21,050 nt of DNA from positions 62,001 through 83,050 of the forward strand of contig JAWLHK010000020.1 of NCBI GenBank assembly GCA_041690355.1, written 5' to 3'. This DNA comes from a bacterium (GTDB taxonomy: Bacteria; J088; JAWLBW01). The notes beneath the pieces are model-generated. The model saw only the letters and a program-made list of their open reading frames with translations, made no database searches and was not told where the DNA came from. Made by a program: the position numbers and the translations under genes. Below, piece by piece: positions 1,771-20,816 of this stretch (positions are counted from its first letter, which is position 1; each line of letters begins with the position of its first letter).

Positions 1771-2439
1771 ATGGGTGATCAAGCGGTTCCCCCGCGAAAA
1801 CAGGCTGCACGCGTTCAGCGTTTCCGCCGCCGGCTTCCTCTTTTCCGCGACGCCGCCGAACGCGTGCGTCCGGGCGATGGGGATGCCGTTGCGGCGGATA
1901 CCGCGGCCCGCCTCGTGCCGCTGCTCGCCCGCGTACCGGCCGAACCGGGGAACCCGCTCGAAGAGAACCTGGTCATCGCGGCCTGGTTTCTGGCCTTTTT
2001 CCAGGCACTGCGTGCGCGCGGGGCCGACGACGCCGAGCTCTCGCTCGCCGGCGAGAGCGCTGCCGAGCAGCTGGTGGCGCAGAAGCCGGTCTGGGTACGC
2101 CGCGTCGAAGCCTGGGTCGTTCGGCAAGGGTGGATGCAGCGGGTCTTGACCCGCGTGGGGCGGCGCAGCCTCATGCGCCCTTCGCCGCTCGGGTTCGCGC
2201 TCGAATTCGTTTCCGGCGACGGACGGAGCGCTCCCTTCGGCTACGACGTGCACACCTGCGGCATCTGCCGCCTGTTTGCGGCCGAGGGGGCGCCGGAGCT
2301 GGTTCCGCTCATGTGCCGCATCGACTACGTCACGAGCCGTCTCGCCGGCCTCGAGCTGACGCGCACGGGTACGATCGGAAACGGCGCCGCGAAGTGCGAT
2401 TTCCGGTTCTCGCTGGCCGCCCGCGACATGAACCGTTAG
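1771..2439 (+). CDS. L-2-amino-thiazoline-4-carboxylic acid hydrolase-like protein
   Basis: C-terminal CGIC...LMCRIDY...LTRTGTIGNGAAKCDFRF pattern typical of the family. TACCAT lies 6 nt before the ATG. The stop overlaps the stop of the convergent gene. Confidence 0.75.
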   Translation: MGDQAVPPRKQAARVQRFRRRLPLFRDAAERVRPGDGDAVAADTAARLVPLLARVPAEPGNPLEENLVIAAWFLAFFQALRARGADDAELSLAGESAAEQLVAQKPVWVRRVEAWVVRQGWMQRVLTRVGRRSLMRPSPLGFALEFVSGDGRSAPFGYDVHTCGICRLFAAEGAPELVPLMCRIDYVTSRLAGLELTRTGTIGNGAAKCDFRFSLAARDMNR

Positions 2440-5400
2440 GGAATCGGTACGATCCCCGGTTCAATCAGCCAGGCTGTCCCGTCGCCCAGGTTTCCGTCAC
2501 CGTTGTCGCCCCAGGACCACAGCGTGCCGGCGCCGCGCAGGCCGTATGTTGCATAGGTTGCGACGTCAATCCCGGTCCAATCGAGCGGACCCCCGGAATC
2601 CACCTGGGTGGGAACCGTCCGTGCGACTTCGTCGCCGAGACCGAGCTTTCCGGAGTAATTGTCACCCCAGCAATAGAGTGCATTGTTGACGCCGTCGCCG
2701 CGAATCCCACACGTGGTCATGTCGCCCGCGGCGATGTCCAGCCAGTCGGCGGCGCTCCCCACCTGCACGGGGGTATAGGCGCAATCGTACAGGTACGTCG
2801 TGCCGCACTGGTGCGGCGACGAGCCGGTGCCGAGCGGCCGGGTGCTGCCATGGTTGAACCCCCAGCACCAGAGGGTGCCGTCGGTGCGAATCGCGCAATT
2901 GTGGTAGTCGCCGCTCGCAATCTTGACGAACGAGGTGCCCGCCGTGACTTCGCGCGGCGACGTTGCGCACCCGATGCCGTTGCAGTCGTCGGGGCCGGTC
3001 GAGGGTCCGAGCCCCAATTGCCCGTACCGGTTTTCGCCCCAGCACCAGAGCGATCCGTCGACCTTGAGGGCGCAGACGTGCGCGTATCCGATCGACGCGG
3101 CCATCCAGTCGGCGGTCGAGCTGACGGCTGACGGGGCGCGGATCTGGAACTCGGTCGAGCTGCTGACGGCATGATACCGATTGTATCCCCAGCAGTAGAG
3201 GCGTTGGTCGCCGGCGACGCCGCAGGAGACGTCTTCGCCGGTTGCGAGCGCGCCCGGCGCCGTGCTCCAGGTCTGCAGGGTGCTTTCCCGGATCCATGAG
3301 AGCGTCCAGGTACCGGAAGCGTCGTTCCCCAGTTGCCCGCTCCCATTGCCTCCGGCGCACCACAGCGAACCGTCGCCGCGCACGGCGCAGCCATGTGACC
3401 TGCCCACCTCAAAAAGCGACCAGCCGGTGTCTGTCGTAATCGCAACGGGATAGGACGCGCTGAATTCAAGCCCCAGGCCGTATTGACCATCGTTATACCC
3501 CCAGCACGCCGGGGTGCCGTCGGTCTGAAGGCCGCACGCCGAATAGTTGCCCCCGCTGACCGACGTCCAGGTGGCACTGCCGACCTGTGCCGGCACCAAT
3601 CGTTCCTGCACGCCCGGGGTTCCCGTCTGCGACGACCAGTTATTGCCCCAGCAGAGGCGCTGCCCGTTACGCCGGACGCCACACGTCAGACTCCCCTCCA
3701 TGTCGACTGACGCCCAGTCGGTGTCATTCCCCACGCGGGTTGGGATGTGCCCTGGTTGCTGGAACCCGACCCCAAGCTCGCCGTAGTAGTTCCCGCCCCA
3801 GCACCACAGGGAACCGTCGGTTTTGATGGCGCAGGACCCGTTGGAGGCAGCGCCCGATCGCCAGTCGGTATCGGTACCGACCTGTGTCGGAGTGTCCATC
3901 CGCGCGAGTTGGCCGTTCGAGCCGTCATTGGAGGCCCCCCAGCACCAGAGCGTTCCGTCGGTCTTGGTGGCGCAGGCATGAATGCTGCCCGCGAATATCG
4001 ACGCCCAGTCGCTGTCGGCGCCGACCTGCGCAGGCGTGGCGGCCGAGCTCGTGGCCATCCCCAGCCCCAGCTGGCCGTAGTTGTTGAGCCCCCAGCACCA
4101 CAGCGTTCCCGGCGCGCGAATGCCGCAGCTGAAGGCCGAACCGGCCGCGACCGTGATCCAGTCGGCACCGCCGACGGAGACGGGGGTCAGATATTGAGTC
4201 GAGGTCGGCACGCCTGCCTGGGACTGTTGGTTCGCTCCCCAGCACAACAGCGATCCGTCGGTGCCCACGGCGCAGGCATGGGCGTCGCCGACGGCAATGT
4301 CGACCATGCTCCCCCCAACGAAGGACGGCGCGAAAGTGCTGCCGCTCGTGATGCCGAGCCCCGTGCGGCCCGAGAGGTTCGACCCCCAGCACCAGAGTTC
4401 GAAGAGGCTCGTGAGCGCGCACATGAAGGTGCCGCTGCCGTCGATGACCGCGACGGGGTTCAACAGGGTCGTCACGGGGACACTCGACTGCGAATACGAA
4501 CCGGTACCGATGTAGCCGTTGCCCCAGCAGTACAGCTCATCGGTGCCGGTGGTCGTCGCGCAAGCGTAGCCGGAACCGCTTGCCGCCGCGCGCCGGCCCG
4601 TCACATAGACGGTTTGCTCGACCCAGGGGGAATAAAGCTCGCCGTCGAAGGCGCGCACCGCGAAGGTGGCATGCCCGGCAAATCCGGCTTCAGGGTCGAA
4701 GCTGAAACTTCCCGTGGCAGAGTCGTTGAGAAGGACCGAAACGCCGGCGCCGTCGACCAGCTGGAGGGTAAGGGTCGATCGGGCGGTATCGGGGTCGGCC
4801 ACGGCGAGGGTACCCGACCGGCCCACGGATTCGAGGGTCCGGAACGTCAGGGAGCTGACCGCCGGGGGATCGTTGACCGGCGTGACCGTGATCGAAACGG
4901 TAGCCGGGGCCGCATCGATCTGACCGTCGGATACCCGGAACGTGAACGAGTCAGCGCCGGAAAAATCCGCATCCGGCGTGTACGTGAACGAGCCGTCGGG
5001 TTGCAGACCGAGCGTCCCGTGGGCCGGGCCCGAAGCGATGGTATAGGTCAGCGACCCGCTGTCGACGTCGGTGCCCGTGACCGTTCCCGCATACGGGGTA
5101 TCCTCAGCCGTCGTCACCCAGTCGGGCCAGGCAACGGGGGCGTCATTGACGGCGGTGACCGCGAGGGCGATGAAAACTGTCGCCGACCAGGCCGTGCCGT
5201 CGCTGACGCACAGGCCGAAGCCGTCGGCACCCGATACGTCCCGGGCGGGGGTATACGTAAAGGTGCCCAACAGCGCGTCGAAGGTGACGAGGCCCAGGGT
5301 GGGAGCGGTGACCAACTCATACGTCAGGCCATCGAAGTCTGCGTCGGTGACGGGCGCAGGCGCCATCAACGGCTCGTCTTCGAAAAGGGCGGTCGAAACC

Positions 5401-6101
5401 GGCCAGGCTTTTGGCATCGAATTACCGATGACCACTGGCGAACTCTGCACCGCCGCGCCCGCGTCGGTGCCGTCGAAGGGGGTGACGACGGCAAAGACCA
5501 CATCGTTCTTCGAGAAAAACGTTCCCGGAAGCGCGGAGTCCGCAGCAAGAGTACCGAGCGGGGTGCCGTTGACCGTCCACGAATAGCGATACCCGGGCGC
5601 GTCGCCGTCGACATCGAGCCAGCCCAGTGCGTCGACCGGAATGAGTGAATCCGTAACGTATTCGCCTGCGGGGATGACGGCCCCCGTGATGGTCGGCGGG
5701 TCATTCACCGGGAGAATGGTGAGCGAAACCGTAGCTGTGCGGCTTACGGTGTCTTCGAGCGTCGCCGAGAGGGTAAAACGGTCGGTGCCGTGATAGTCGG
5801 CGTCGGGCGTGTACGTCCAGGCCAGCCCGTCGCCCGTCAGCGTGCCGTGCCCGGGAGAGGTTACGACGGTAATCGCGGGGATCGACTCGCTGCCGGTTAC
5901 GGCGGGGTCGACGACGATGTCGAGGCTTGCGTCTTCGTCGACCGAGAGTTCGACATCGTTCAACGTGATGGTCACCGCGGGAGGCGGATCGTTCTCGTCA
6001 TCCGGGTCCAAAGTACGCGAGCGCGGATCCGGTTCGGATGCACAGGCGCTCAGGGCGGCAAATAAGGCTGCCCAGGCGAAAACGCGGAAATGGTTGTGCA
6101 T
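2436..6101 (-). CDS. Large surface lipoprotein: ~5 Ig/cadherin-like domains followed by 14 RCC1-like repeats (1221 aa)
   Basis: GGAGG SD before ATG 6101; signal peptide with lipobox LSAC. Repeats of the ED...TYTPxxDxxGxDxF...PVNDxP type, followed by 14 LxCWGxN-type repeats. Confidence 0.88.
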   Translation of the reverse strand: MHNHFRVFAWAALFAALSACASEPDPRSRTLDPDDENDPPPAVTITLNDVELSVDEDASLDIVVDPAVTGSESIPAITVVTSPGHGTLTGDGLAWTYTPDADYHGTDRFTLSATLEDTVSRTATVSLTILPVNDPPTITGAVIPAGEYVTDSLIPVDALGWLDVDGDAPGYRYSWTVNGTPLGTLAADSALPGTFFSKNDVVFAVVTPFDGTDAGAAVQSSPVVIGNSMPKAWPVSTALFEDEPLMAPAPVTDADFDGLTYELVTAPTLGLVTFDALLGTFTYTPARDVSGADGFGLCVSDGTAWSATVFIALAVTAVNDAPVAWPDWVTTAEDTPYAGTVTGTDVDSGSLTYTIASGPAHGTLGLQPDGSFTYTPDADFSGADSFTFRVSDGQIDAAPATVSITVTPVNDPPAVSSLTFRTLESVGRSGTLAVADPDTARSTLTLQLVDGAGVSVLLNDSATGSFSFDPEAGFAGHATFAVRAFDGELYSPWVEQTVYVTGRRAAASGSGYACATTTGTDELYCWGNGYIGTGSYSQSSVPVTTLLNPVAVIDGSGTFMCALTSLFELWCWGSNLSGRTGLGITSGSTFAPSFVGGSMVDIAVGDAHACAVGTDGSLLCWGANQQSQAGVPTSTQYLTPVSVGGADWITVAAGSAFSCGIRAPGTLWCWGLNNYGQLGLGMATSSAATPAQVGADSDWASIFAGSIHACATKTDGTLWCWGASNDGSNGQLARMDTPTQVGTDTDWRSGAASNGSCAIKTDGSLWCWGGNYYGELGVGFQQPGHIPTRVGNDTDWASVDMEGSLTCGVRRNGQRLCWGNNWSSQTGTPGVQERLVPAQVGSATWTSVSGGNYSACGLQTDGTPACWGYNDGQYGLGLEFSASYPVAITTDTGWSLFEVGRSHGCAVRGDGSLWCAGGNGSGQLGNDASGTWTLSWIRESTLQTWSTAPGALATGEDVSCGVAGDQRLYCWGYNRYHAVSSSTEFQIRAPSAVSSTADWMAASIGYAHVCALKVDGSLWCWGENRYGQLGLGPSTGPDDCNGIGCATSPREVTAGTSFVKIASGDYHNCAIRTDGTLWCWGFNHGSTRPLGTGSSPHQCGTTYLYDCAYTPVQVGSAADWLDIAAGDMTTCGIRGDGVNNALYCWGDNYSGKLGLGDEVARTVPTQVDSGGPLDWTGIDVATYATYGLRGAGTLWSWGDNGDGNLGDGTAWLIEPGIVPIP

Positions 6102-6186
6102 GGCCCCTCCCATCGGGTTTGCAGTGTCCCGACACCTTATCACTGCAGGCTATGGAGCGCAACGCTGGGCGGGCCCTGGCGGCTCC

Positions 6187-9701: not shown

Positions 9702-10250
9702 TCAGAATTCGGCCTTCCAGAGACCGGGATAGTCGACCACGAAGCCGGCGTCGTTCGCCTGCAGGTCGGCGGCGTAACCGAACCGGGGCGCCTCATACCG
9801 GTACGTGCGGGCATCGCGCCGCTCATAGGACTGACGCAAACGCTCGAGGGTACCGCTCGCGATATCCAGCCACGCGACCGACACGTCCTGCACGGCGCCG
9901 ATCGGAAGCGCGAGCCGGCGCAGCTGGGTGAGGTTCGTCGCCGGCGTGAAGCCCAGGTCGAGATCATGGCAGCCGTTCAGCCCGGGAACGTCACGCCCGT
10001 TGAGCGTCCACAGACCCGTGCGGGCCCGCTCTATCCGGTAATCCACCGGTTGGTTGCCGATCCAGCCTTCGACGAGTCCCGTTTGCGTCTGCCACGATTC
10101 GTCGCAGTCGAGTGCGTAGCGAAGATTCGCCGGCACGCCCTGGTCACAGAAGACCGCGGCCCCTTCGAGGCGCCAGCCGCCGGGTGCAGACAACAGGCGG
10201 CAGGCATCGTGCCCCATCGAGTCGAGTCGGCGCCAGAGAATTGAATCCAC
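9702..10250 (-). CDS. Putative glycolipid-binding domain protein (DUF1089-like)
   Basis: ILWRRLD..GHDAC, DLDLGFTPATN and GFVVDYPGLW motifs; GTG start 6 nt after TGGTAAGAT. Confidence 0.85.
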   Translation of the reverse strand: MDSILWRRLDSMGHDACRLLSAPGGWRLEGAAVFCDQGVPANLRYALDCDESWQTQTGLVEGWIGNQPVDYRIERARTGLWTLNGRDVPGLNGCHDLDLGFTPATNLTQLRRLALPIGAVQDVSVAWLDIASGTLERLRQSYERRDARTYRYEAPRFGYAADLQANDAGFVVDYPGLWKAEF

Positions 10251-12636: not shown

Positions 12637-13059
12637 CTACCTTCCGAAATACATCGTCAGTGCATCGGCAGGTGACAGGATAGGAATGTCTTGGAAAGGA
12701 TGAAGGATAAGGAGATCACGGTCGCCTGTGACGATACAATCCGCATTGCCGAGGACCGCCGTTTCGAGAAACTTGTCATCATCGAGGTCACGGCACCCCA
12801 TCCGGCTTCCTGGAATGAACACGCGCTCCGAGACGGCGTCCAACTGTGCGAGGAACTGTTTTCGCAGTGAGACCGTGACGTAGGCGTCGAATTTTTTCTG
12901 AAGCAGACGATCGTGAAGTTCTGCTAGGGTCTCGTCGGAGAAGAGGAGAATGACCCGGGCGGACCGAAAGGCCTCCAGCAGCCTGGCCGGCGGTCCGGAA
13001 CCACGCAGCGACGCGCTGATGAGCACGTTGGTGTCGACGACGAAACGCTCAGCCTTCAT
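12637..13059 (-). CDS. PIN-domain toxin of a type II toxin-antitoxin system
   Basis: VVDTNVLISA, CRDLDDDKFLETA and IVTGDRDLL motifs; overlaps the antitoxin by 11 bp. Confidence 0.92.
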   Translation of the reverse strand: MKAERFVVDTNVLISASLRGSGPPARLLEAFRSARVILLFSDETLAELHDRLLQKKFDAYVTVSLRKQFLAQLDAVSERVFIPGSRMGCRDLDDDKFLETAVLGNADCIVTGDRDLLILHPFQDIPILSPADALTMYFGR

Positions 13060-13300
13060 CGTCGAGCAGGGCCTGGAGTGCCTTGTCCGTCAACCCTTTC
13101 CTGGCGGCGTGGGTTTGCATGGCCTGGACGGTTTCGCCAAGGCGATCCCAAGCCGCACCCCTCAGCCTCTGGTACTGCTCTTCGGAGAGGATTACCCCCG
13201 CAGAGCGCCCGTGTTTCGTGACGCGAACGGGTTCACGTTGCGCCCAGTCCAACAGCTGACCGAACTGGTTCTTGGCATCCCTTGCGCTCATTTCCTTCAT
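13049..13300 (-). CDS. Phd/YefM family antitoxin
   Basis: MSARDAKNQFGQLLD...PVRVTKHGR...VILS motif, directly upstream of the PIN toxin. Confidence 0.92.
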   Translation of the reverse strand: MKEMSARDAKNQFGQLLDWAQREPVRVTKHGRSAGVILSEEQYQRLRGAAWDRLGETVQAMQTHAARKGLTDKALQALLDDEG

Positions 13301-13468: not shown

Positions 13469-15763
13469 ATGAAATTCCCTTTCGTCCGTCCGGTCTTCGC
13501 CCTGCTTCCCCTCGTCCTGTCCGGCGCCTGCTCGGCTGAACCTGCGACGCCCGCAGCGCAGCCCCCCTTCCGCGTCATCGAAGGGGTTCAGCAGCTGACC
13601 ATCGTCGAGGCCGAAGCCGGCCTGGCCGCCACCCTGTTCGACCCGAACGGGAAGGAGCTCATCACGCTCATCACGGATGAATTCGGGCAGGCGCATTTCG
13701 CCTATATTCCGAACGAGCCGACGACCTACCAGACCGGCGAGGGCGGCGATCTGCCGTCCTACGACGGGGCCACGTTGAAGCCGGGCACGGGATACACCTT
13801 CCGCACGGAAGAGGGAACCTACGGGCCCTACCGCGTGCTCGGCATCGACGATCATCCGCCCGTGGCGCTGTACGAGAAGCAGAGCCTGGGGCGGGGGATG
13901 AACTACATCGAGACCCGCGACGGAACCCTGCTTTCGGCGGCCGTCTGGATTCCGGATCCCCTGCTGTGCGGCGACGGTCCCTGGCCGACCATCGTGGAGT
14001 ATTCCGGCTACAGCCCCTCGAACCCGCGCGAGGCGCAGCCCGGCTCGATGATCGCCAACCTGATGCTCTGCTACGTGGCCGTGGGGGTGAACATGCGCGG
14101 CACCGGCTGCTCGGGCGGCGTGTTCGACGTCTTCAACCCCGCCCAGTCGGCCGACGCCTACGACATCATCGAAGTGGCCGGCCGCCAGTGGTTCACGCTG
14201 CACAACAAGGTGGGGATGGTGGGGCTCTCCTATCCGGGGATCACGCAGCTCTACGCGGCCGCGACCAACCCGCCGCACTTGGCCGCCATCGCGCCGCAGT
14301 CGGTCATCGAAGACCCCTGGCGGCAGGCCTGGCCGGGCGGCATCTACAACAGCGGCTTCACGCGCCAGTGGATCGAGGCCCGCGACCGCTATGCCGAGGC
14401 CGGCGGCGGCGACTGGGTGCGCAAGCGCATCGACGAGGGGGATACCGTCTGCGAGGCCAATCAGCAGCTGCGCTCGCAGAACGTGAACTTCAAGGTGTTC
14501 AGCGAGTCGCTTGACACCTTTCCGCCCGACGCCGGCGAGCGCCGCCTGTCGAATCTGGTGCCGCGCATCGACGTCCCCGTCTTTCTTACGGGCGCCTGGC
14601 AGGACGAGCAGACCGGGTCGCGCTTTGCGACCATGCTCGACGACTTCGAGAACGCGCCGGTCAAGCGCTTCACGATGTTCAACGGACGGCATCCCGACGG
14701 CTACCTGCCGCTGACGCTGACCCGCTGGGCCGAGTTCCTCGAATTCTACGTCGCGCGGCGCATTCCGGTCATCAGCCCGATTCTACGCGTCGCCCAGGAA
14801 GACCTCTTCGCGGCCATCTTCGACGCCGACGGGCTGCGCTTCGAGCCCGATCGATTTCTGTACTTCCCCGATTACGAGAGCGCGCTCGCGGCCTACGAAG
14901 CCGAACCGCCGGTGCGCATTCTGTTCGAGAGCGGCTACGGCAGCGACGTGACCGAAGCGCCGGTGGCCCGCTTCGAGCGCAGCTTTGCGAGCTGGCCGCC
15001 GTCGGCCGAGGCGAAGACCTGGTACCTCGGGCCCGACGGCACGCTGACCGACGGCGCGCCCGCTTCGCTCCCCGTGGGGGACGACGGACTGGACCACTAC
15101 CGGCATGACCCCGAGGCGGGGGACCAGAGCTACATTTACCACGACAGCCTTTTCCGCCTCGGCTGGGATTGGCCGTATGCGGGCGCGGGCTACGCGCTCG
15201 CGTACACGACGGCGCCGTTCGCCGAAGACACGCTCATCGTCGGCAACGGCGGGTATGTGGATCTCTGGTTCGCGAGCACGGCTTCGGAGGCGCACGTGGA
15301 GGTGAACATCCTCGAGGTGCGCCCCGACGGCACCGAGTTTCTCGTGCAGAACGGGGTCTTCGACCTGCGCTTCCGCAACGGCGTCGACGAGGCGCGCTCC
15401 GGCGAGTTCCTGGTGGAATACACGTATGCGGCCGACAGCGTTGCCGAGCTGGTGCCGGGCGAGTACGTGAACGCGCGGATTCCGATTCGGCCGTTCGGTC
15501 ATGCCTTCCGCAAGGGGACGCGGCTGCGCCTGGAGATCGACACGCCGGGGCGCGACCATGGCTTCTGGGAATACGAGAATCCGGCCTACGGCGATGAGGT
15601 CATTCACACGGTCGCGCGCACGCCGGCCAGGCCGACGAGCCTGAAGCTTCCGCTGATCACCGGCACCGACATTCCCGACGAGGCCCCGCCGTGCTACTCC
15701 CTGCGCGGCATCGTCTGCCGCGACTGGATGCCGCTGCCGAACACGACGGTGACGCTGGACTGA
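13469..15763 (+). CDS. CocE/NonD family alpha/beta hydrolase (peptidase S15-like), predicted lipoprotein
   Basis: TRDGTLL, GPWPTIVEYSGY, NMRGTGCSGG, nucleophile GLSYPG and C-terminal HAFRKGTRLRL motifs; signal peptide ending LSGAC. Confidence 0.9.
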   Translation: MKFPFVRPVFALLPLVLSGACSAEPATPAAQPPFRVIEGVQQLTIVEAEAGLAATLFDPNGKELITLITDEFGQAHFAYIPNEPTTYQTGEGGDLPSYDGATLKPGTGYTFRTEEGTYGPYRVLGIDDHPPVALYEKQSLGRGMNYIETRDGTLLSAAVWIPDPLLCGDGPWPTIVEYSGYSPSNPREAQPGSMIANLMLCYVAVGVNMRGTGCSGGVFDVFNPAQSADAYDIIEVAGRQWFTLHNKVGMVGLSYPGITQLYAAATNPPHLAAIAPQSVIEDPWRQAWPGGIYNSGFTRQWIEARDRYAEAGGGDWVRKRIDEGDTVCEANQQLRSQNVNFKVFSESLDTFPPDAGERRLSNLVPRIDVPVFLTGAWQDEQTGSRFATMLDDFENAPVKRFTMFNGRHPDGYLPLTLTRWAEFLEFYVARRIPVISPILRVAQEDLFAAIFDADGLRFEPDRFLYFPDYESALAAYEAEPPVRILFESGYGSDVTEAPVARFERSFASWPPSAEAKTWYLGPDGTLTDGAPASLPVGDDGLDHYRHDPEAGDQSYIYHDSLFRLGWDWPYAGAGYALAYTTAPFAEDTLIVGNGGYVDLWFASTASEAHVEVNILEVRPDGTEFLVQNGVFDLRFRNGVDEARSGEFLVEYTYAADSVAELVPGEYVNARIPIRPFGHAFRKGTRLRLEIDTPGRDHGFWEYENPAYGDEVIHTVARTPARPTSLKLPLITGTDIPDEAPPCYSLRGIVCRDWMPLPNTTVTLD

Positions 15764-15774
15764 GGGCCGCCCCC

Positions 15775-15818
15775 CGGCCCCCCTGTCGTCCCCCGTCCGG
15801 GGGACGACAGGGGGGCCG
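15775..15818. terminator. Perfect 20-bp GC-rich hairpin after the CocE/NonD gene
   Basis: cggcccccctgtcgtccccc-gtcc-gggggacgacaggggggccg, with no U-tract. Confidence 0.55.
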
Positions 15819-16057
15819 TGAGTGAAATCCGCGGGACGGCTTGAATTCCAGCTTGTCGTGAAGTCCGTGCTGTGCTCACCGACCCCAGTGGCGTCGCATT
15901 CCTCAGGCCGCGGTGGCAGCCGCAGGCGCGTGGGCCGGCGAATGCTCCGGGCTTGGGCGCCGCCGGAAGCGGCGCGTGGCGGGGGTGACCGGAGCGGAGC
16001 GTGGCGGGTGCCAAGGGCAATTGGGGAAGGGCCTTCTCTCGGTCGGGAAGCTTGGGG

Positions 16058-16150
16058 GGGTAACGATGAAGCTGAGCGGAACCAACCAGCTCACGCTGAG
16101 AGCCTACCACAAATCGCTACGGTTGGCTTCCGCTCGAGTTGGTGTTAGGC
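16058..16150 (-). other. attC site 1 (93 bp)
   Basis: Minus strand GCCTAAC-ACCA-ACTCGAGC-GGAAGCCAACC...GGTTGGTTCC-GCTCAGC-TTCATC-GTTACCC. R and L boxes and the extra base in L'' are present. The first spacer is 4 nt rather than 5 and the R' tail deviates from consensus. Confidence 0.8.
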
Positions 16151-16379
16151 ACAGGCATCGGCTGTTTTGGCCAGCATCACGAATCTCGACAAGTTCGCCG
16201 CATTTGGGTAGAGCAAGAGCCGACTGAAGTGTGGAACCGAGTAATCCCTCGTCCGTGCGTATAGGTATTCCGCAGCGCCACGCAAACCAGCCTGGGTGCA
16301 GGACCCGCGATATCACTGTCACTAGTCAAGAAACTCACGTATTTAACTGCCTTGCGAGTCTACTCAAGCACCACTTGGG

Positions 16380-17693
16380 CTAACCAAACTGGCGTTGTAG
16401 TTCCTCGTGTATATAGGTTTCAAGGGGAAAACTTACAAACGGAGCTATCTTCCTAAAGTCCTTCGACAGCCACCTCTCGACCTTCTCAACATCCTCAGCC
16501 CCCCAATCGTCCGACAACCAAGAGGCAGCTTCTTTATTTATCTTAGCCTTAACGTAGTCATCTGCCGTGCCCACGTTTTGCCGCAAGGCGCTTTTCGCAA
16601 GCTCAACTTGAGGATAGCCTGAATAACGATCACTAAGCACAAAGTCGGCGAATAGATTAAGTAGTTTACGTTGGGTCTTACCCAACAGATGGTCAAAGAT
16701 TGGTTCTGTAGCGCTTGCTAGTCGGTTTTCAACATCATAATCCGAGGCAGCGTTCTCCCACTGTGAGAGCAATCTCTTTTCGATCGTTTTCCTTTTGGAT
16801 TCGTCAAGCTTAGAGTAGGACGGAGCGAAAATATCCTGCAGAGATTCAAGCATCCTATGCTTAAATCCTTCTGAATAGTGATCGTAATATTCGGAAGTGA
16901 GACTAGTTTGCTCGGAACTCTTAAGAAGCTTAAAGATCTCTTGGAGAAGAACTTTAAGGTTCCGAGCCTTCCAGTCAGATGCATAGGTCTCTGTAGACAA
17001 CGAGTAAAACTTGCCAATTATTTCTTTGCCAAGTTCGACTCGCTCGTTTTCATCGAGTCTGGCGGCTATCTCGTCTAGGATGTTCTCCTTCCGCTCATCG
17101 GCTATAGCCTCTCTATATGCTTTAGTCACCTCTTGCGCTTGGGAAGCCGGAGTAGAGTCCACTTTCTGTCTATCTTGAATCCCTTGAAGAAATTCCTTTG
17201 TCGGATAATGAAGTATATTATCGAAGGACAGCTCCTCTTTAAGCTTTGCGAGGTATTCCTTCAACTTAAAGTCAATTGAAAACAAGTTGTCGATATCTTC
17301 GCCATGCATCACCATTACTGATTGCCGCCGGCCTCGGCGTAATGCATTCAAGAAATTCTCCGACAATGGTTCCTTGGAAAGAAAAAGACCTAGGGTACCG
17401 GTAAATTTGTTCTCGACTTTTCCGATAAACGAAAAAAGCTCTGACGCCGCCAAGCCGCTCTCCACCCACTTAACTTCTAGAAGACAAACAGTGCCATCAA
17501 GCTTTATCGCGCCGTCTATTTGCTCAGACTTGTTATCGGATGTGTAGTAGGAACGTTTAACCAGAAGCCGCGCCTCCTCAAAGATATCCAAAACCAAGTC
17601 TTCAAAAGCTCTACCCCTGGCTTGTGGATCAACCTTGCTAACCCTTTGCAGCTTGCCATATTGCTTAATAATCTCTGGCTTGGATCTTGTCAT
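16380..17693 (-). CDS. Mrr-like PD-(D/E)XK restriction endonuclease domain plus long helical C-terminal region
   Basis: RGRAFEDLV...EQIDG...LLEVKW...GLFLS motifs. Start uncertain: ATG 17693 or GTG 17777. Confidence 0.8.
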   Translation of the reverse strand: MTRSKPEIIKQYGKLQRVSKVDPQARGRAFEDLVLDIFEEARLLVKRSYYTSDNKSEQIDGAIKLDGTVCLLEVKWVESGLAASELFSFIGKVENKFTGTLGLFLSKEPLSENFLNALRRGRRQSVMVMHGEDIDNLFSIDFKLKEYLAKLKEELSFDNILHYPTKEFLQGIQDRQKVDSTPASQAQEVTKAYREAIADERKENILDEIAARLDENERVELGKEIIGKFYSLSTETYASDWKARNLKVLLQEIFKLLKSSEQTSLTSEYYDHYSEGFKHRMLESLQDIFAPSYSKLDESKRKTIEKRLLSQWENAASDYDVENRLASATEPIFDHLLGKTQRKLLNLFADFVLSDRYSGYPQVELAKSALRQNVGTADDYVKAKINKEAASWLSDDWGAEDVEKVERWLSKDFRKIAPFVSFPLETYIHEELQRQFG

Positions 17694-17817
17694 CGCCGGT
17701 TTACCAAAAGAATAGGGGGCTGTTTCATAACGGGCGGGCTCTAATACCTTGTTAAGTTGCCAACTTCGGTAGGCCACCCCACCTAGGTCAGCCTTTTTTG
17801 TGGGGCTTGCACGTTTG

Positions 17818-17912
17818 GCCGAACGGTTGACAGTGAGCGGCGAGTCCGACTCATCATGAAAGCCTAGCAGAAAGCGAAACAGGCTGCTGCCCGCTCGAGT
17901 ATCGTGTTAGGG
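17818..17912 (-). other. attC site 2 (95 bp)
   Basis: Minus strand CCCTAAC-ACGAT-ACTCGAGC-GG...CC-GCTCACT-GTCAACC-GTTCGGC, clearly homologous to attC 1 and about 50 bp after the ATPase stop. Confidence 0.75.
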
Positions 17913-17961
17913 TCGAGGGGGGGGGCGGCTAGAAGATAGAGTGCTCTCTATTACACAACGC

Positions 17962-20142
17962 TCAGAGTGTAAGTGGAGTGATGCTCAGCGACTCGACTTC
18001 CCGGTAGAGTTCTTTTAAGTGCTCCACAGATAGGTCTAGAATCGGTTCATACATAAAAGAGTTCAGGTGTATATTTGAACTGACCGTTATGCTAACTTTG
18101 TCGAGCGTCGCCATCGGTCTTGTCGGTGGGCCGTAGCTTGCGTACTGATCATTTAGCACCCGAAACTGGTTCTCCTCTTCGCACCAATAATCGTCTTGCC
18201 CCATATAGCCACGTATCTGGTCCACAAGAAAGACCTCGGCCTTCATACGTATAGCAATAGATAGGACAACCTTGTCCTCCAGAATTAGACCCGGTTGAGT
18301 TGTTTTAGTACAAATTTCATCGGCCTCTCTGAACAGAACGTCTCGAAGCGGTTCCGTACGACCAGTATCGTAGCTCGTGCCGAAAAGCCGGTTGTAAACC
18401 TTGATGTAGTCTCCAACGGTAATTGCGGCTGTGTCACGCTTCCAGTGCAACAGGCTGGTGAGCTGGAGATAGTCGCGGTCTGTGCTTCCCTTTGTATACT
18501 CGATCAGATTTCGGGAAAAAGGGATAGTAGCGCATAGAATGCAGTCATCGGTGGTGACATTGTCCTTCCATTTCCCAATGAAGTAGTTCCTTACGCCATC
18601 AGCTTTGGTAAGGATTATTTCGCCTGCGGCCTTGTTTGCCATTAGGCAACGTTCATATGGAACAAAAGTAAGATTCAGTGTCCTGTAGAAGTCAAAGTTA
18701 TGTGTCAATACGATTTGATGGAAGTGCTCGATACGGCTGACATCCCTTAAGTACTGAACGATCGCGTGTTTATTCTTGTAGTCAAAGGAGTCCGCAATAT
18801 CATCAATGATGAAGACAGTCTCCTTTGTCGCGAGCTTCCGAGCCTCCACCTCAAAGATGAAGTTCAACAGGTAGAGCGCACGTTTTTCGCCTTGGCTCAA
18901 AGTCTTCAATTCCGATCGTGACCACTCGACTATGTCAGCGCCATCCTTGAAAGTGAATTTGAGCTTCGCTTTGTCCTTCCCAAGCGCGGCTTCAGCTTGA
19001 TTAGCCACCGAAAGAGTAAATGGCATATCGACGAACCTACTGTTAAACAGCTCGACGGCATTCGTCCACGTGGGAACAGCTTGAGTGGCCTCGATCTCAA
19101 TGCGCTTTATTTCCTCTTTACTTTCAGCCCAAAGAGTGACATAGGGGGAAGCATCTGGGGAGGCTTGAACGTAAAATGCCCAAAGTTCTTGGCGGAACTC
19201 GTCTTGGTTTTCTGGCTTAAGTTTCTCCAATAAGTATTCAACCTGGTGCGACGAAAGCTTTTCAATTAAGTCTGTTAGAGCTAATGTCTGTGCGTTCTTG
19301 GCTAAGTTTTCGCGAAGCTTCTTTAGGCCTTCATCAGCATCAATCCTTGCATTAATTGCGTCCAGTTTCTGGCGCAGCTCTGTTTCATCTACGGGATTTG
19401 CGTCCCCCCTGAGATGAACACGATGGCCCCCAGCAAAGAAGCCCTGTTTACTTAGGGCGCCAATAGACGCTTCCGCCCTTGCCGGGTTGAAGACGCCCCG
19501 TAGGTAGACTGTGCCTGCTTGATTGAAGAGCTCTTGGTAGCGTTGGTTGAATTCATCGGCTTTTTCAGCAAACTCTTTGCTCTTCAGAACTTCGATCGCT
19601 TTGGGATCGAAAATAGTCGCATATTCGAACGCGCTCAGGTCTTCTTCGACAGTGATCCCCTTGATTTTCTCGACACAGGCAGCGAAGTCGCTTTGCCCCC
19701 AGTCGGCCAGCATCTTTCCTTCGATGTCGCCCTTTTTTACTTTTGATGCCTTTTGCAGCGAGGCGATGAGTTTGCTCTTCATCTTCTCGAGATCAACAAG
19801 GAGCTCATCGTATCGAGCCTTTTGGGCTGGGTTAACCAAGATATTGGTTATAGCAGAGCCGTCCGAAGAGATATCAATCTCCGACTTTAGAACGTAGACA
19901 TCCTCTTTGGAAATAGGACTTCCGTCCGCCTGCACAAGACACGTCGAAGGTCTGTTGAAACGTTCCTCTTTCGGTGACTCGCCGCTTGCAAGGGCTTCAA
20001 AAGTCTTGGCGAAAGACGACTTCATTAAACCGTTTGGCGCGTAGACTGCATACGCCTTAGGCTTATTGCCTCTGAAGTCGAACTCGTGTTCCAAGTGGGC
20101 TATACCATAGCAGTTTTTCAATTCTACTTTGAGCTTTTTCAT
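17962..20142 (-). CDS. ABC/SMC-like AAA ATPase (RloC/PrrC-like layout) with coiled-coil insert and uncharacterised C-terminal domain
   Basis: Variant Walker A APNGLMKSS, signature LSQGE, Walker B/D-loop FIIDDIADSFD, H-loop LTHN and C-terminal NIHLNSFMYEPILD. Confidence 0.82.
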   Translation of the reverse strand: MKKLKVELKNCYGIAHLEHEFDFRGNKPKAYAVYAPNGLMKSSFAKTFEALASGESPKEERFNRPSTCLVQADGSPISKEDVYVLKSEIDISSDGSAITNILVNPAQKARYDELLVDLEKMKSKLIASLQKASKVKKGDIEGKMLADWGQSDFAACVEKIKGITVEEDLSAFEYATIFDPKAIEVLKSKEFAEKADEFNQRYQELFNQAGTVYLRGVFNPARAEASIGALSKQGFFAGGHRVHLRGDANPVDETELRQKLDAINARIDADEGLKKLRENLAKNAQTLALTDLIEKLSSHQVEYLLEKLKPENQDEFRQELWAFYVQASPDASPYVTLWAESKEEIKRIEIEATQAVPTWTNAVELFNSRFVDMPFTLSVANQAEAALGKDKAKLKFTFKDGADIVEWSRSELKTLSQGEKRALYLLNFIFEVEARKLATKETVFIIDDIADSFDYKNKHAIVQYLRDVSRIEHFHQIVLTHNFDFYRTLNLTFVPYERCLMANKAAGEIILTKADGVRNYFIGKWKDNVTTDDCILCATIPFSRNLIEYTKGSTDRDYLQLTSLLHWKRDTAAITVGDYIKVYNRLFGTSYDTGRTEPLRDVLFREADEICTKTTQPGLILEDKVVLSIAIRMKAEVFLVDQIRGYMGQDDYWCEEENQFRVLNDQYASYGPPTRPMATLDKVSITVSSNIHLNSFMYEPILDLSVEHLKELYREVESLSITPLTL

Positions 20143-20477
20143 TTCAACCCGATACCATTCAGACAGGCAGCCGCGTACCGTGCCTAGTAAAGTGATTTAT
20201 CTAGCGCTCGATTCGCTTCGGTAGATGAACCCCTAGTGTACCAGATTGCTAAGCAGACATCGCACAGAAGCAAGAAAGTAGAAAGCCTGCCGAGAGTTAC
20301 GGGAAGAAGTCGATATCGCAGTACTGCCACCTTGGAAGTGGGAGAAATTGTAGTTCTCAATTTGTTTCAGGTCGCCGATAGGATGGTCAACTCCGAACAA
20401 GTAGCGCGAGGGACACATTCGAACAGGGGGGGGGCTAAGGGGCAAGGCCCCTCATCGGATGGGCGGAGACGGAGTCG

Positions 20478-20497
20478 GCCTAACTACTGTTTATGCC
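20478..20497 (-). other. attI-like simple site (or decayed attC)
   Basis: Minus strand GGCATAAA-CAGTA-GTTAGGC resembles the attI1 simple site GCCCTAAA-ACAAA-GTTRRRY. It sits at the head of the array, where GC content rises again. Confidence 0.55.
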
Positions 20498-20611
20498 CCC
20501 GATCTGCCGACCGCAAATCCACCAATTCGGGGGCCTAAGATCCCGTCCGGGCGGCTAGGTCGTTGTTTTCAGGGGGGCGCCCCGGGATTCGCCCCCCCGA
20601 ACCACGGATCT

Positions 20612-20640
20612 GTTATATCCCAGAGGTCAGCGGAATTCAA
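20612..20640 (-). promoter_or_regulatory. Candidate Pc-like promoter facing the cassettes
   Basis: TTGAAT, 17 nt, TATAAC on the minus strand about 115 bp upstream of the attI-like site. The last T of the -10 box is not conserved. Confidence 0.35.
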
Positions 20641-20816
20641 ACCGCCCTCGTAGCACGCGGTCGCGGAATGGCGCTGAGGTGGGCAGGCGCCCGCGGCCGC
20701 TCGGGTATCGCCCGGTGGGTGCAGGTTGCGGGCATGCAGGTCACCAGGTCGAGCTCGCCCGTGGGCCACGAATCCCCTTGCAGGCGGCAGAAAGCCGATG
20801 GCCAGGCTCGCCGGTT

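Follow-up and report, generated by a model that had tools for sequence, protein, structure and literature searches.

Background

The working model for integrons holds that gene cassettes are promoterless, that their expression falls with distance from the promoter Pc, and that distal cassettes form a silent reserve. The recombination sites of the cassettes, known as attC sites or 59-base elements, combine R''/R' and L''/L' boxes in an imperfect hairpin with an extra-helical base, lie 3' of a co-oriented open reading frame (ORF) and occur in tandem arrays; a cluster of attC sites without an integrase is a CALIN in the terms of IntegronFinder. Here we analyse two such sites, attC1 and attC2, which share these traits and lie in a stretch of 21,050 nucleotides (nt) from a bacterial contig (JAWLHK010000020.1, positions 62,001 to 83,050; this whole stretch is called the window below). 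In classical attC sites the apical loop, or variable terminal structure, is described as variable and unconstrained in sequence, whereas in the family to which attC1 and attC2 belong five loop positions are near-invariant and spell an extended -10 promoter box.

Several described systems place promoters in or near cassettes. Promoters borne by individual cassettes (cmlA, qacE/qacI, qnrVC1, toxin-antitoxin cassettes, gene-less cassettes of Vibrionaceae) ensure Pc-independent transcription in arrays (PMC8876359, PMC11014356). They are located in the 5' untranslated region or in the body of one cassette, whereas the box considered here is found in the recombination site itself, family-wide, and would serve the neighbouring cassette. 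In Vibrio sp. DAT722, a sigma-70 promoter bridges one attC junction (PMC2945992). As at our locus, a promoter element within attC feeds the downstream cassette, and this element, a -35, is common to several attC sites; however, the matching -10 is unique to cassette 21 and a single junction is active, whereas here the whole extended -10 lies inside attC and is conserved. Among gene-less cassettes, scattered transcription start sites were reported, one of them inside an attC site and judged possibly spurious (PMC11014356). Finally, group IIC-attC introns also bring to attC sites a portable promoter that drives downstream cassettes, but this promoter belongs to the inserted intron and not to the attC sequence itself (PMC3001079).

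Small ORFs at recombination sites have been described as well. Both short ORFs in attC and ORF-11 of attI1 were proposed to aid translation, by termination and reinitiation near the next start codon (PMC8876359, PMC11511950), and a short ORF within attC is reported to relieve the hairpin (PMC8876359). A small ORF is also present at one of our sites, but it differs from these in stopping 89 nt short of the next start and in not being conserved. Own promoters and small attC ORFs were both regarded, in 2024, as anecdotal exceptions (PMC11511950). A search of the full-text literature, whose scope did not extend to subscription journals and supplements, returned no paper describing a family-conserved -10 in the attC loop.

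Two attC sites with an extended -10 box in the loop

The ends of attC1 and attC2 (Table 1) carry the inverse core R'' (RYYYAAC) on one side and an R' starting with GTT on the other. The bases that follow this GTT (ACCC in attC1, CGGC in attC2) deviate from RRRY, and are part of the downstream DNA. The L'' and L' boxes pair as GAGCGG/CCGCTC in 4/4 aligned sites, one of the two sides carrying an extra base. In the predicted fold of attC1 a one-base bulge is found in the L stem, and the fold of attC2 is weaker (z = -0.57, top strand). Both sites lie 3' of a co-oriented minus-strand ORF, and their relatives, described below, form arrays. A covariance model trained on four copies from this genome gives 95.1 bits to attC1 and 96.7 bits to attC2, by construction, since both are training sequences. 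Run with its filters off, it returns no further attC in the window, the next best match (E = 0.14) falling inside a peptidase gene. A third, degenerate attC that had been suspected by eye upstream of cassette 2 (around 20640-20735) was dropped, as the model finds none there. Because they possess the R'', L'', L' and R' boxes, and because homologous sites stand in tandem arrays of many metagenome-assembled genomes (MAGs), we conclude that attC1 and attC2 are genuine integron attC sites.

On the top, cassette-sense strand, the apical loop of each site contains a promoter-like box. In attC1, TGGTAGGCT is followed by six bases and a GTG (16094-16092), and the GTT of the crossover (16064-16062) comes 30 nt, or 10 codons, further on. 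In attC2, TGCTAGGCT is followed by six bases and an ATG (17854-17852), with a second in-frame ATG 3 nt upstream (17857), and the GTT (17824-17822) is again 30 nt away. The coordinates of the boxes and of the GTG and ATG, and the spacing of 30 nt in both copies, had been correctly reported in the first-pass annotation of this stretch. At both sites a TG is placed one base upstream of a hexamer with T at -12, A at -11 and T at -7, as in an extended -10 element. The pattern TGNTANNNT-N6-RTG has three matches in the window, taking both strands, while dinucleotide shuffles contain 0.39 on average and 0/100 of them reach three. The third match is the start of a host gene at 10250 (-), which encodes a glycolipid-binding domain.

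Conservation of the box across the attC family

Relatives were gathered with patterns placed on the L boxes and the GC stem only, no base of the loop being specified. The exact pattern of the R'', L'' and L' boxes occurs in at least 140 stretches in MAGs of many phyla, many of which are tandem arrays in which 2 to 4 sites follow one another at intervals of a few hundred nt (L062, L046 and L189 are examples). This attC subfamily is widespread among soil bacteria, in several phyla. Removal of identical sequences and of one coding false positive (L169) left 67 unique sites, which are kin, come mostly from soil metagenomes and MAGs, and were aligned with MAFFT; four other matches that look coding (L166, L172, L178, L179) fail a stricter pattern and were left out. 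A pattern with the A-CTCGAGCGG variant of the window copies yields only three stretches, none of them new. The organism itself is phylogenetically isolated: the 100 relatives that were searched include a single genome from its own family and three from its phylum; across these 100 genomes, the covariance model gives clear matches only in the same-family one (G001).

The motif TGnTAnnnT is present at the aligned position in 62/67 sites. In one more (L168) the box stands 4 nt further on and is misaligned, as judged by eye, which brings the count to 63/67. One further site has AG in place of TG, and in the three true exceptions (L185, L238, L241) a different TAnnnT lies 3 to 5 nt downstream, again judged by eye. 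The box position is occupied by 25 distinct 9-mers. When the 35 columns of the loop are ranked by conservation over 66 rows, the five defining columns (T-15, G-14, T-12, A-11 and T-7) are 97 to 100% conserved and take ranks 1 to 5, while the four columns noted n are 38, 86, 41 and 58% conserved, with ranks 35, 11, 34 and 25. The probability that five columns named beforehand fill the first five ranks is 3.1e-6, with no correction for shared descent. Conservation of the box is thus position-specific, as expected of a promoter.

In the sites of the family the box always points at the next gene, both in strand and in side. In 55/60 sites the start of a long co-oriented ORF falls within -30 to +158 nt of the GTT, with a median of about 21 nt.

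How could such a pattern arise? Four scenarios are considered below: descent and chance, a role in the hairpin, a promoter that also carries a start codon, and a promoter.

If the box had no function, its conservation would simply reflect descent and chance among relatives that are too close to each other. The sampling lends itself to this criticism, in that the stem patterns pick a single subfamily and many rows are near-duplicates outside the loop. Yet the neighbouring and interleaved columns have diverged without restraint (38 to 58% conservation and the 25 different 9-mers, as against 97 to 100% in the key columns), and pure descent is disfavoured because it does not predict this alternation of fixed and free positions. 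We hold this scenario to be very unlikely.

Alternatively, the box may be kept for something other than transcription, such as folding, strand choice or a host protein that acts on single-stranded attC, its likeness to a -10 being coincidental. This proposal is in keeping with where the box lies, within the apical loop of a hairpin that recombines as single-stranded DNA, and the TG is at times paired with a conserved CA a few bases downstream when sites are folded singly. Within attC, on the other hand, it is the loop in which changes of sequence are reported to be tolerated. A precedent for loop conservation that bears no -10 signature exists in another attC family, with loops of 44 nt (loci L027-L165, mostly proteobacterial MAGs), in which a block of 13 nt, ATAAAGTGCCAAG, is invariant. 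This block contains TAAAGT but leaves no position free, and the filter that retrieved the family also selected on it, so that it is uninformative as to a -10. Against a role in the hairpin, the consensus fold of the family (alifold) gives no loop pair common to its members, and for this reason we tend to exclude base pairing as the cause of the conservation. Moreover, five fixed positions among four free ones are what the -10 model predicts, and a constant strand and side relative to the next gene point the same way. We therefore judge a non-transcriptional role unlikely.

Two further ideas were discarded. The conserved TA(G) might have been the stop codon of the upstream ORF, but an open frame of at least 60 codons stops there in only 9/63 sites, and some sites have TAC or TAT instead. 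Neither is the box a general feature of attC loops: in a broad sample of attC sites it occurs in 4/150 unique loops on the top strand and 1/150 on the bottom strand, for about 1.4 in shuffled loops, and two families with loops of 49 to 52 nt have no TAnnnT at all.

The -10 and start codon layout in the host

A -10 box followed after 6 or 7 nt by a start codon is the layout typical of leaderless genes in Actinobacteria and Deinococcus. Genome-wide, counts of TAnnnT-Nk-RTG in the present host show a sharp peak at k = 6, with 740 sites over a background of about 550, and a smaller excess at k = 7. With TG in front, there are 117 sites at k = 6, compared with about 20 to 65 at off-peak spacings. 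Of the k = 6 sites, 283/740 open an ORF that looks coding and has 100 codons or more. These 283 candidate leaderless starts consist of 206 ATG and 77 GTG, 66 are preceded by TG, and five use the hexamer TAGGCT. The host leaderless signal often has TG at -15/-14, and a weak T at -35.

We conclude that the host uses the -10/N6/start layout for leaderless genes. Given the genome-wide excess at k = 6, it is plausible that the host polymerase reads boxes of this kind.

Inside the window, five host genes had been credited with the same layout. Four do have the exact N6 spacing, at 10250 (-), 732 (+), 1771 (+) and 13300 (-), and the others have N7; TG is found at 10250 (-) only, the remaining three N6 starts having TAnnnT without it. 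The start at 13300 (-) belongs to a region (12637-13300, minus strand) made of a PIN_3-domain gene of 140 amino acids (aa) and a small upstream ORF of 83 aa preceded by TACAAT-N6-ATG, a likely toxin-antitoxin pair. A related arrangement precedes the ATG of cassette 2 (20142), where TGGTATCGG and six bases (20143-20165, minus strand) form the host leaderless layout but with G for T at -7.

A start codon confined to two copies

The first-pass annotation had named, as a test, the conservation of the whole arrangement TGnTAnnnT-N6-(A/G)TG-N27-GTT in homologous sites. The promoter half of this arrangement is conserved (63/67), but its second half is not. A start codon (ATG, GTG or TTG) at N6 is found in 0/63 relatives with the hexamer in place, where the commonest triplets are CAC and CAA; at N7 there is an ATG in 1/63, and none occurs at N4, N5, N8 or N9. 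The distance from the N6 position to the GTT is 35 to 40 nt in all 60 relatives in which it can be measured, as against 30 nt in the window copies. Within this genome we collected nine attC-like sites, seven from one search (a weak match with E = 0.66 was left out) and two more, and RTG stands at N6 in two of the nine, namely attC1 and attC2. Both have RTGAG at the same aligned place, which makes it likely that the RTG arose in one event and not two. As to the equal spacing of 30 nt, it results from two compensating length differences of 1 nt that flank CCGCTCA; a count by hand gives 32 nt in their nearest copies within this genome (contigs C4 and C18).

From these start codons, two short ORFs cross out of the attC sites. 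The one of attC2 has 23 codons, passes the crossover, and ends in a frame other than that of the cassette 1 gene. An alternative start of cassette 1 exists at GTG 17777, 5 nt past the stop of the 23-codon ORF, but the lengths of homologues do not support it, whereas the start at 17693 fits both these lengths and the database record of 437 aa. Coupling of the ORF-11 type, with a stop at or near the downstream start, is thus not what we see, the gap being 89 nt, and the loading of ribosomes onto the cassette across the crossover, as first supposed, finds no support at this locus. The other ORF, of 63 codons, leaves attC1 for host intergenic DNA. Its GC content at codon positions 1, 2 and 3 is 0.63, 0.73 and 0.81, its translation looks non-coding by eye, and it is probably not a gene. 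Compared with true leaderless genes, the two window copies mimic the host layout exactly, but a 5' start codon opening a conserved frame is lacking, and the attC ORFs are unlike genes in length, in conservation and in composition.

These data bear on the scenario in which attC carries a promoter and, at +1, a start codon, so that ribosomes are loaded across the crossover and help translate the next cassette. In its favour, both window copies present the exact TGnTAnnnT-N6-RTG of the host, this layout is used for many host genes, and the aid to downstream translation reported for short attC ORFs and for ORF-11 of attI1 (PMC8876359, PMC11511950) offers a precedent. It is contradicted by the relatives, in which the start codon is missing and the GTT more distant, by the 7/9 attC-like sites of the same genome that have no start codon, by the probable single origin of the two RTG, and by the fate of the two ORFs, one ending out of frame before ATG 17693 and the other entering host intergenic DNA. 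In addition, cassettes of 45 to 50% GC in a host of 66% GC suggest too short a residence for tuning to this particular host. Taken as a whole, this scenario seems highly improbable to us. A 5'-terminal RTG would probably be translated in this host, since the host uses the -10/N6/start layout, but the leaderless ORFs of the window copies are probably incidental, because they are short, non-conserved and uncoupled from the cassette gene.

A candidate promoter inside attC

The last scenario is a promoter as such. With a probability of roughly 0.55, we propose that the box is an outward-facing promoter of the sigma-70 type, placed inside attC and conserved throughout the family; that it is bound and fires is suggested by the conservation of its sequence. 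The housekeeping RNA polymerase would recognise the extended -10 in double-stranded attC, without the help of a -35, and transcription would start at a purine 6 to 8 nt past the box, within the 3' half of attC. In most relatives the start base would be the G or the A of a conserved TTGCA, and in the window copies the G or A of RTG. The transcript would comprise the 3' arm of attC, run across the crossover and enter the next cassette, whose typical start is about 20 nt after the GTT, and it would not contain the 5' arm of the hairpin. At our locus, the box of attC2 would drive the Mrr-like gene of cassette 1, and that of attC1 would fire into host DNA, toward a 21-bp perfect inverted repeat.

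This repeat (15775-15818, two arms of 21 nt with a gap of 2 nt) is located just after the convergent S15 peptidase gene and is likely to be a terminator hairpin; any transcript coming out of attC1 would meet it too.

Several observations weigh against the promoter. The hexamer TAGGCT shares only 3/6 positions with TATAAT, and by eye no -35 is seen 17 ± 1 bp upstream of either box. A simple sigma-70 scan of 15600-20600 lists neither site, because such a scan demands 4/6 hexamer matches. In this genome, the strict TGnTAnnnT is found in only 4/9 attC-like sites. The relatives are kin, and the rank test takes no account of shared descent. The column that would hold +1 at a distance of 7 nt is a C in 94% of relatives, so that the start would have to be the preceding G or the following A. 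More generally, a constitutive promoter in each attC runs counter to the accepted picture, in which cassettes have no promoter and are mostly silent. Lastly, for resistance cassettes of mobile integrons, deletion of attC is reported to have little effect on downstream expression (PMC11511950).

On balance, the idea of attC as a portable expression module can be kept in part. A portable promoter is plausible given the conservation of the box, and the case for it now extends well beyond the first observation; the leaderless start reading across the crossover (0/63 relatives, 2/9 sites of the genome) is not plausible, the RTG and its in-frame spacing of 30 nt being a peculiarity of two related copies and probably incidental.

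Cassettes and genomic context

Base composition sets the cassettes apart from their surroundings: GC content is 64 to 71% from base 1 to about 16050 and from 20500 to the end of the window, and 45 to 51% over 16150-20450. This low-GC island consists of two minus-strand genes (Table 1), each followed on the same strand by an imperfect palindrome of about 95 nt. The product of cassette 1 has full-length homologues mostly of about 435 to 475 aa, some of which contain PF04471 or are named Mrr restriction endonuclease, while a Pfam search with the protein itself gives nothing above cut-off. The product of cassette 2 matches PDLC05023 of PADLOC (E = 1.5e-233, residues 1-719 of 726) and AAA_13 of Pfam (E = 1.2e-12). 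The island corresponds to two foreign cassettes of the defence type, at 45 to 50% GC, inserted in a chromosome at 66% GC.

Table 1. Positions in the window of the attC sites, promoter-like boxes, short ORFs and cassette genes
Feature	Positions	Strand	Description
attC1	16057..16150	-	Terminal attC of the two-cassette cluster; R'' GCCTAAC 16150-16144; L'' CTCGAGCGG; L' CCGCTC; R' GTTACCC 16064-16058
attC2	17817..17913	-	Between cassette 2 and cassette 1; R'' CCCTAAC 17913-17907; R' GTTCGGC 17824-17818
Box of attC1	16101..16109	-	Extended -10-like TGGTAGGCT in the apical loop, top (cassette-sense) strand; read from sequence
Box of attC2	17861..17869	-	Extended -10-like TGCTAGGCT in the apical loop, top strand; read from sequence
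23-codon ORF	17783..17854	-	ATG 17854 to TAG 17785-17783; crosses the GTT crossover; ends 89 nt before the cassette 1 ATG 17693
63-codon ORF	15903..16094	-	From GTG 16094; leaves attC1 and enters intergenic DNA of the host, behind the convergent S15 peptidase gene; probably not a gene
Cassette 1 gene	16380..17693	-	437 aa; Mrr-type restriction-endonuclease-like; database protein P0001, 437 aa; downstream of the attC2 box
Cassette 2 gene	17962..20142	-	726 aa; AAA_13-type ATPase; full-length match to the candidate phage-defence family PDC-S46

Within the window, which ends at the contig end, no recombinase match and no intI with attI adjoining the array were found. The only integron integrase of the genome above the NCBIfam cut-off is on contig C4 (TIGR02249, 449 bits for a cut-off of 265). 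As the integrase sits on that contig and none stands beside the attC sites of the window, the pair forms a CALIN. The integron of contig C4 occupies 100-108 kb (L009 11752-18126), with intI at L009 17053-18126 (+), two attC matches at L009 15094-15001 and 11852-11752 (-), and a Xer-like tyrosine recombinase gene (277 aa) within the array.

Runs of 7 to 10 G on the plus strand are found at or beside the presumed cassette borders (16052-16058, 17918-17926 and 20425-20434), and a similar run of C follows the attC of contig C18. There are two candidates for the border upstream of cassette 2, a GTT near 20424 and GTTAGGC at 20485-20479 (-). The same-family genome, compared in search of an empty site, aligns with the S15 peptidase gene (73% identity, query 1-1154 of 1458) but with nothing beyond this gene nor on the right flank, and does not fix the insertion borders. 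Elsewhere in the window, a protein of 1235 aa encoded at 2436-6143 (-) has cadherin-like/Big_9 domains followed by many RCC1 repeats.

Implications

Extending the proposal from this locus to the family, we tentatively envisage an attC family that spans phyla and has a working extended -10 in its loop, each cassette bringing the promoter of its neighbour. Arrays and CALINs of this kind would be transcribed cassette by cassette, independently of Pc and of position, and changes of single bases at +1, like those of the two window copies, would create a leaderless mini-ORF in hosts that translate 5'-terminal start codons.

If this is true, expression of soil integrons and CALINs would travel with the site, and not with the platform. 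The view of arrays as a cost-free 'memory' would then fail for the attC family that bears the box, and defence cassettes like the two described here could be active wherever they land.

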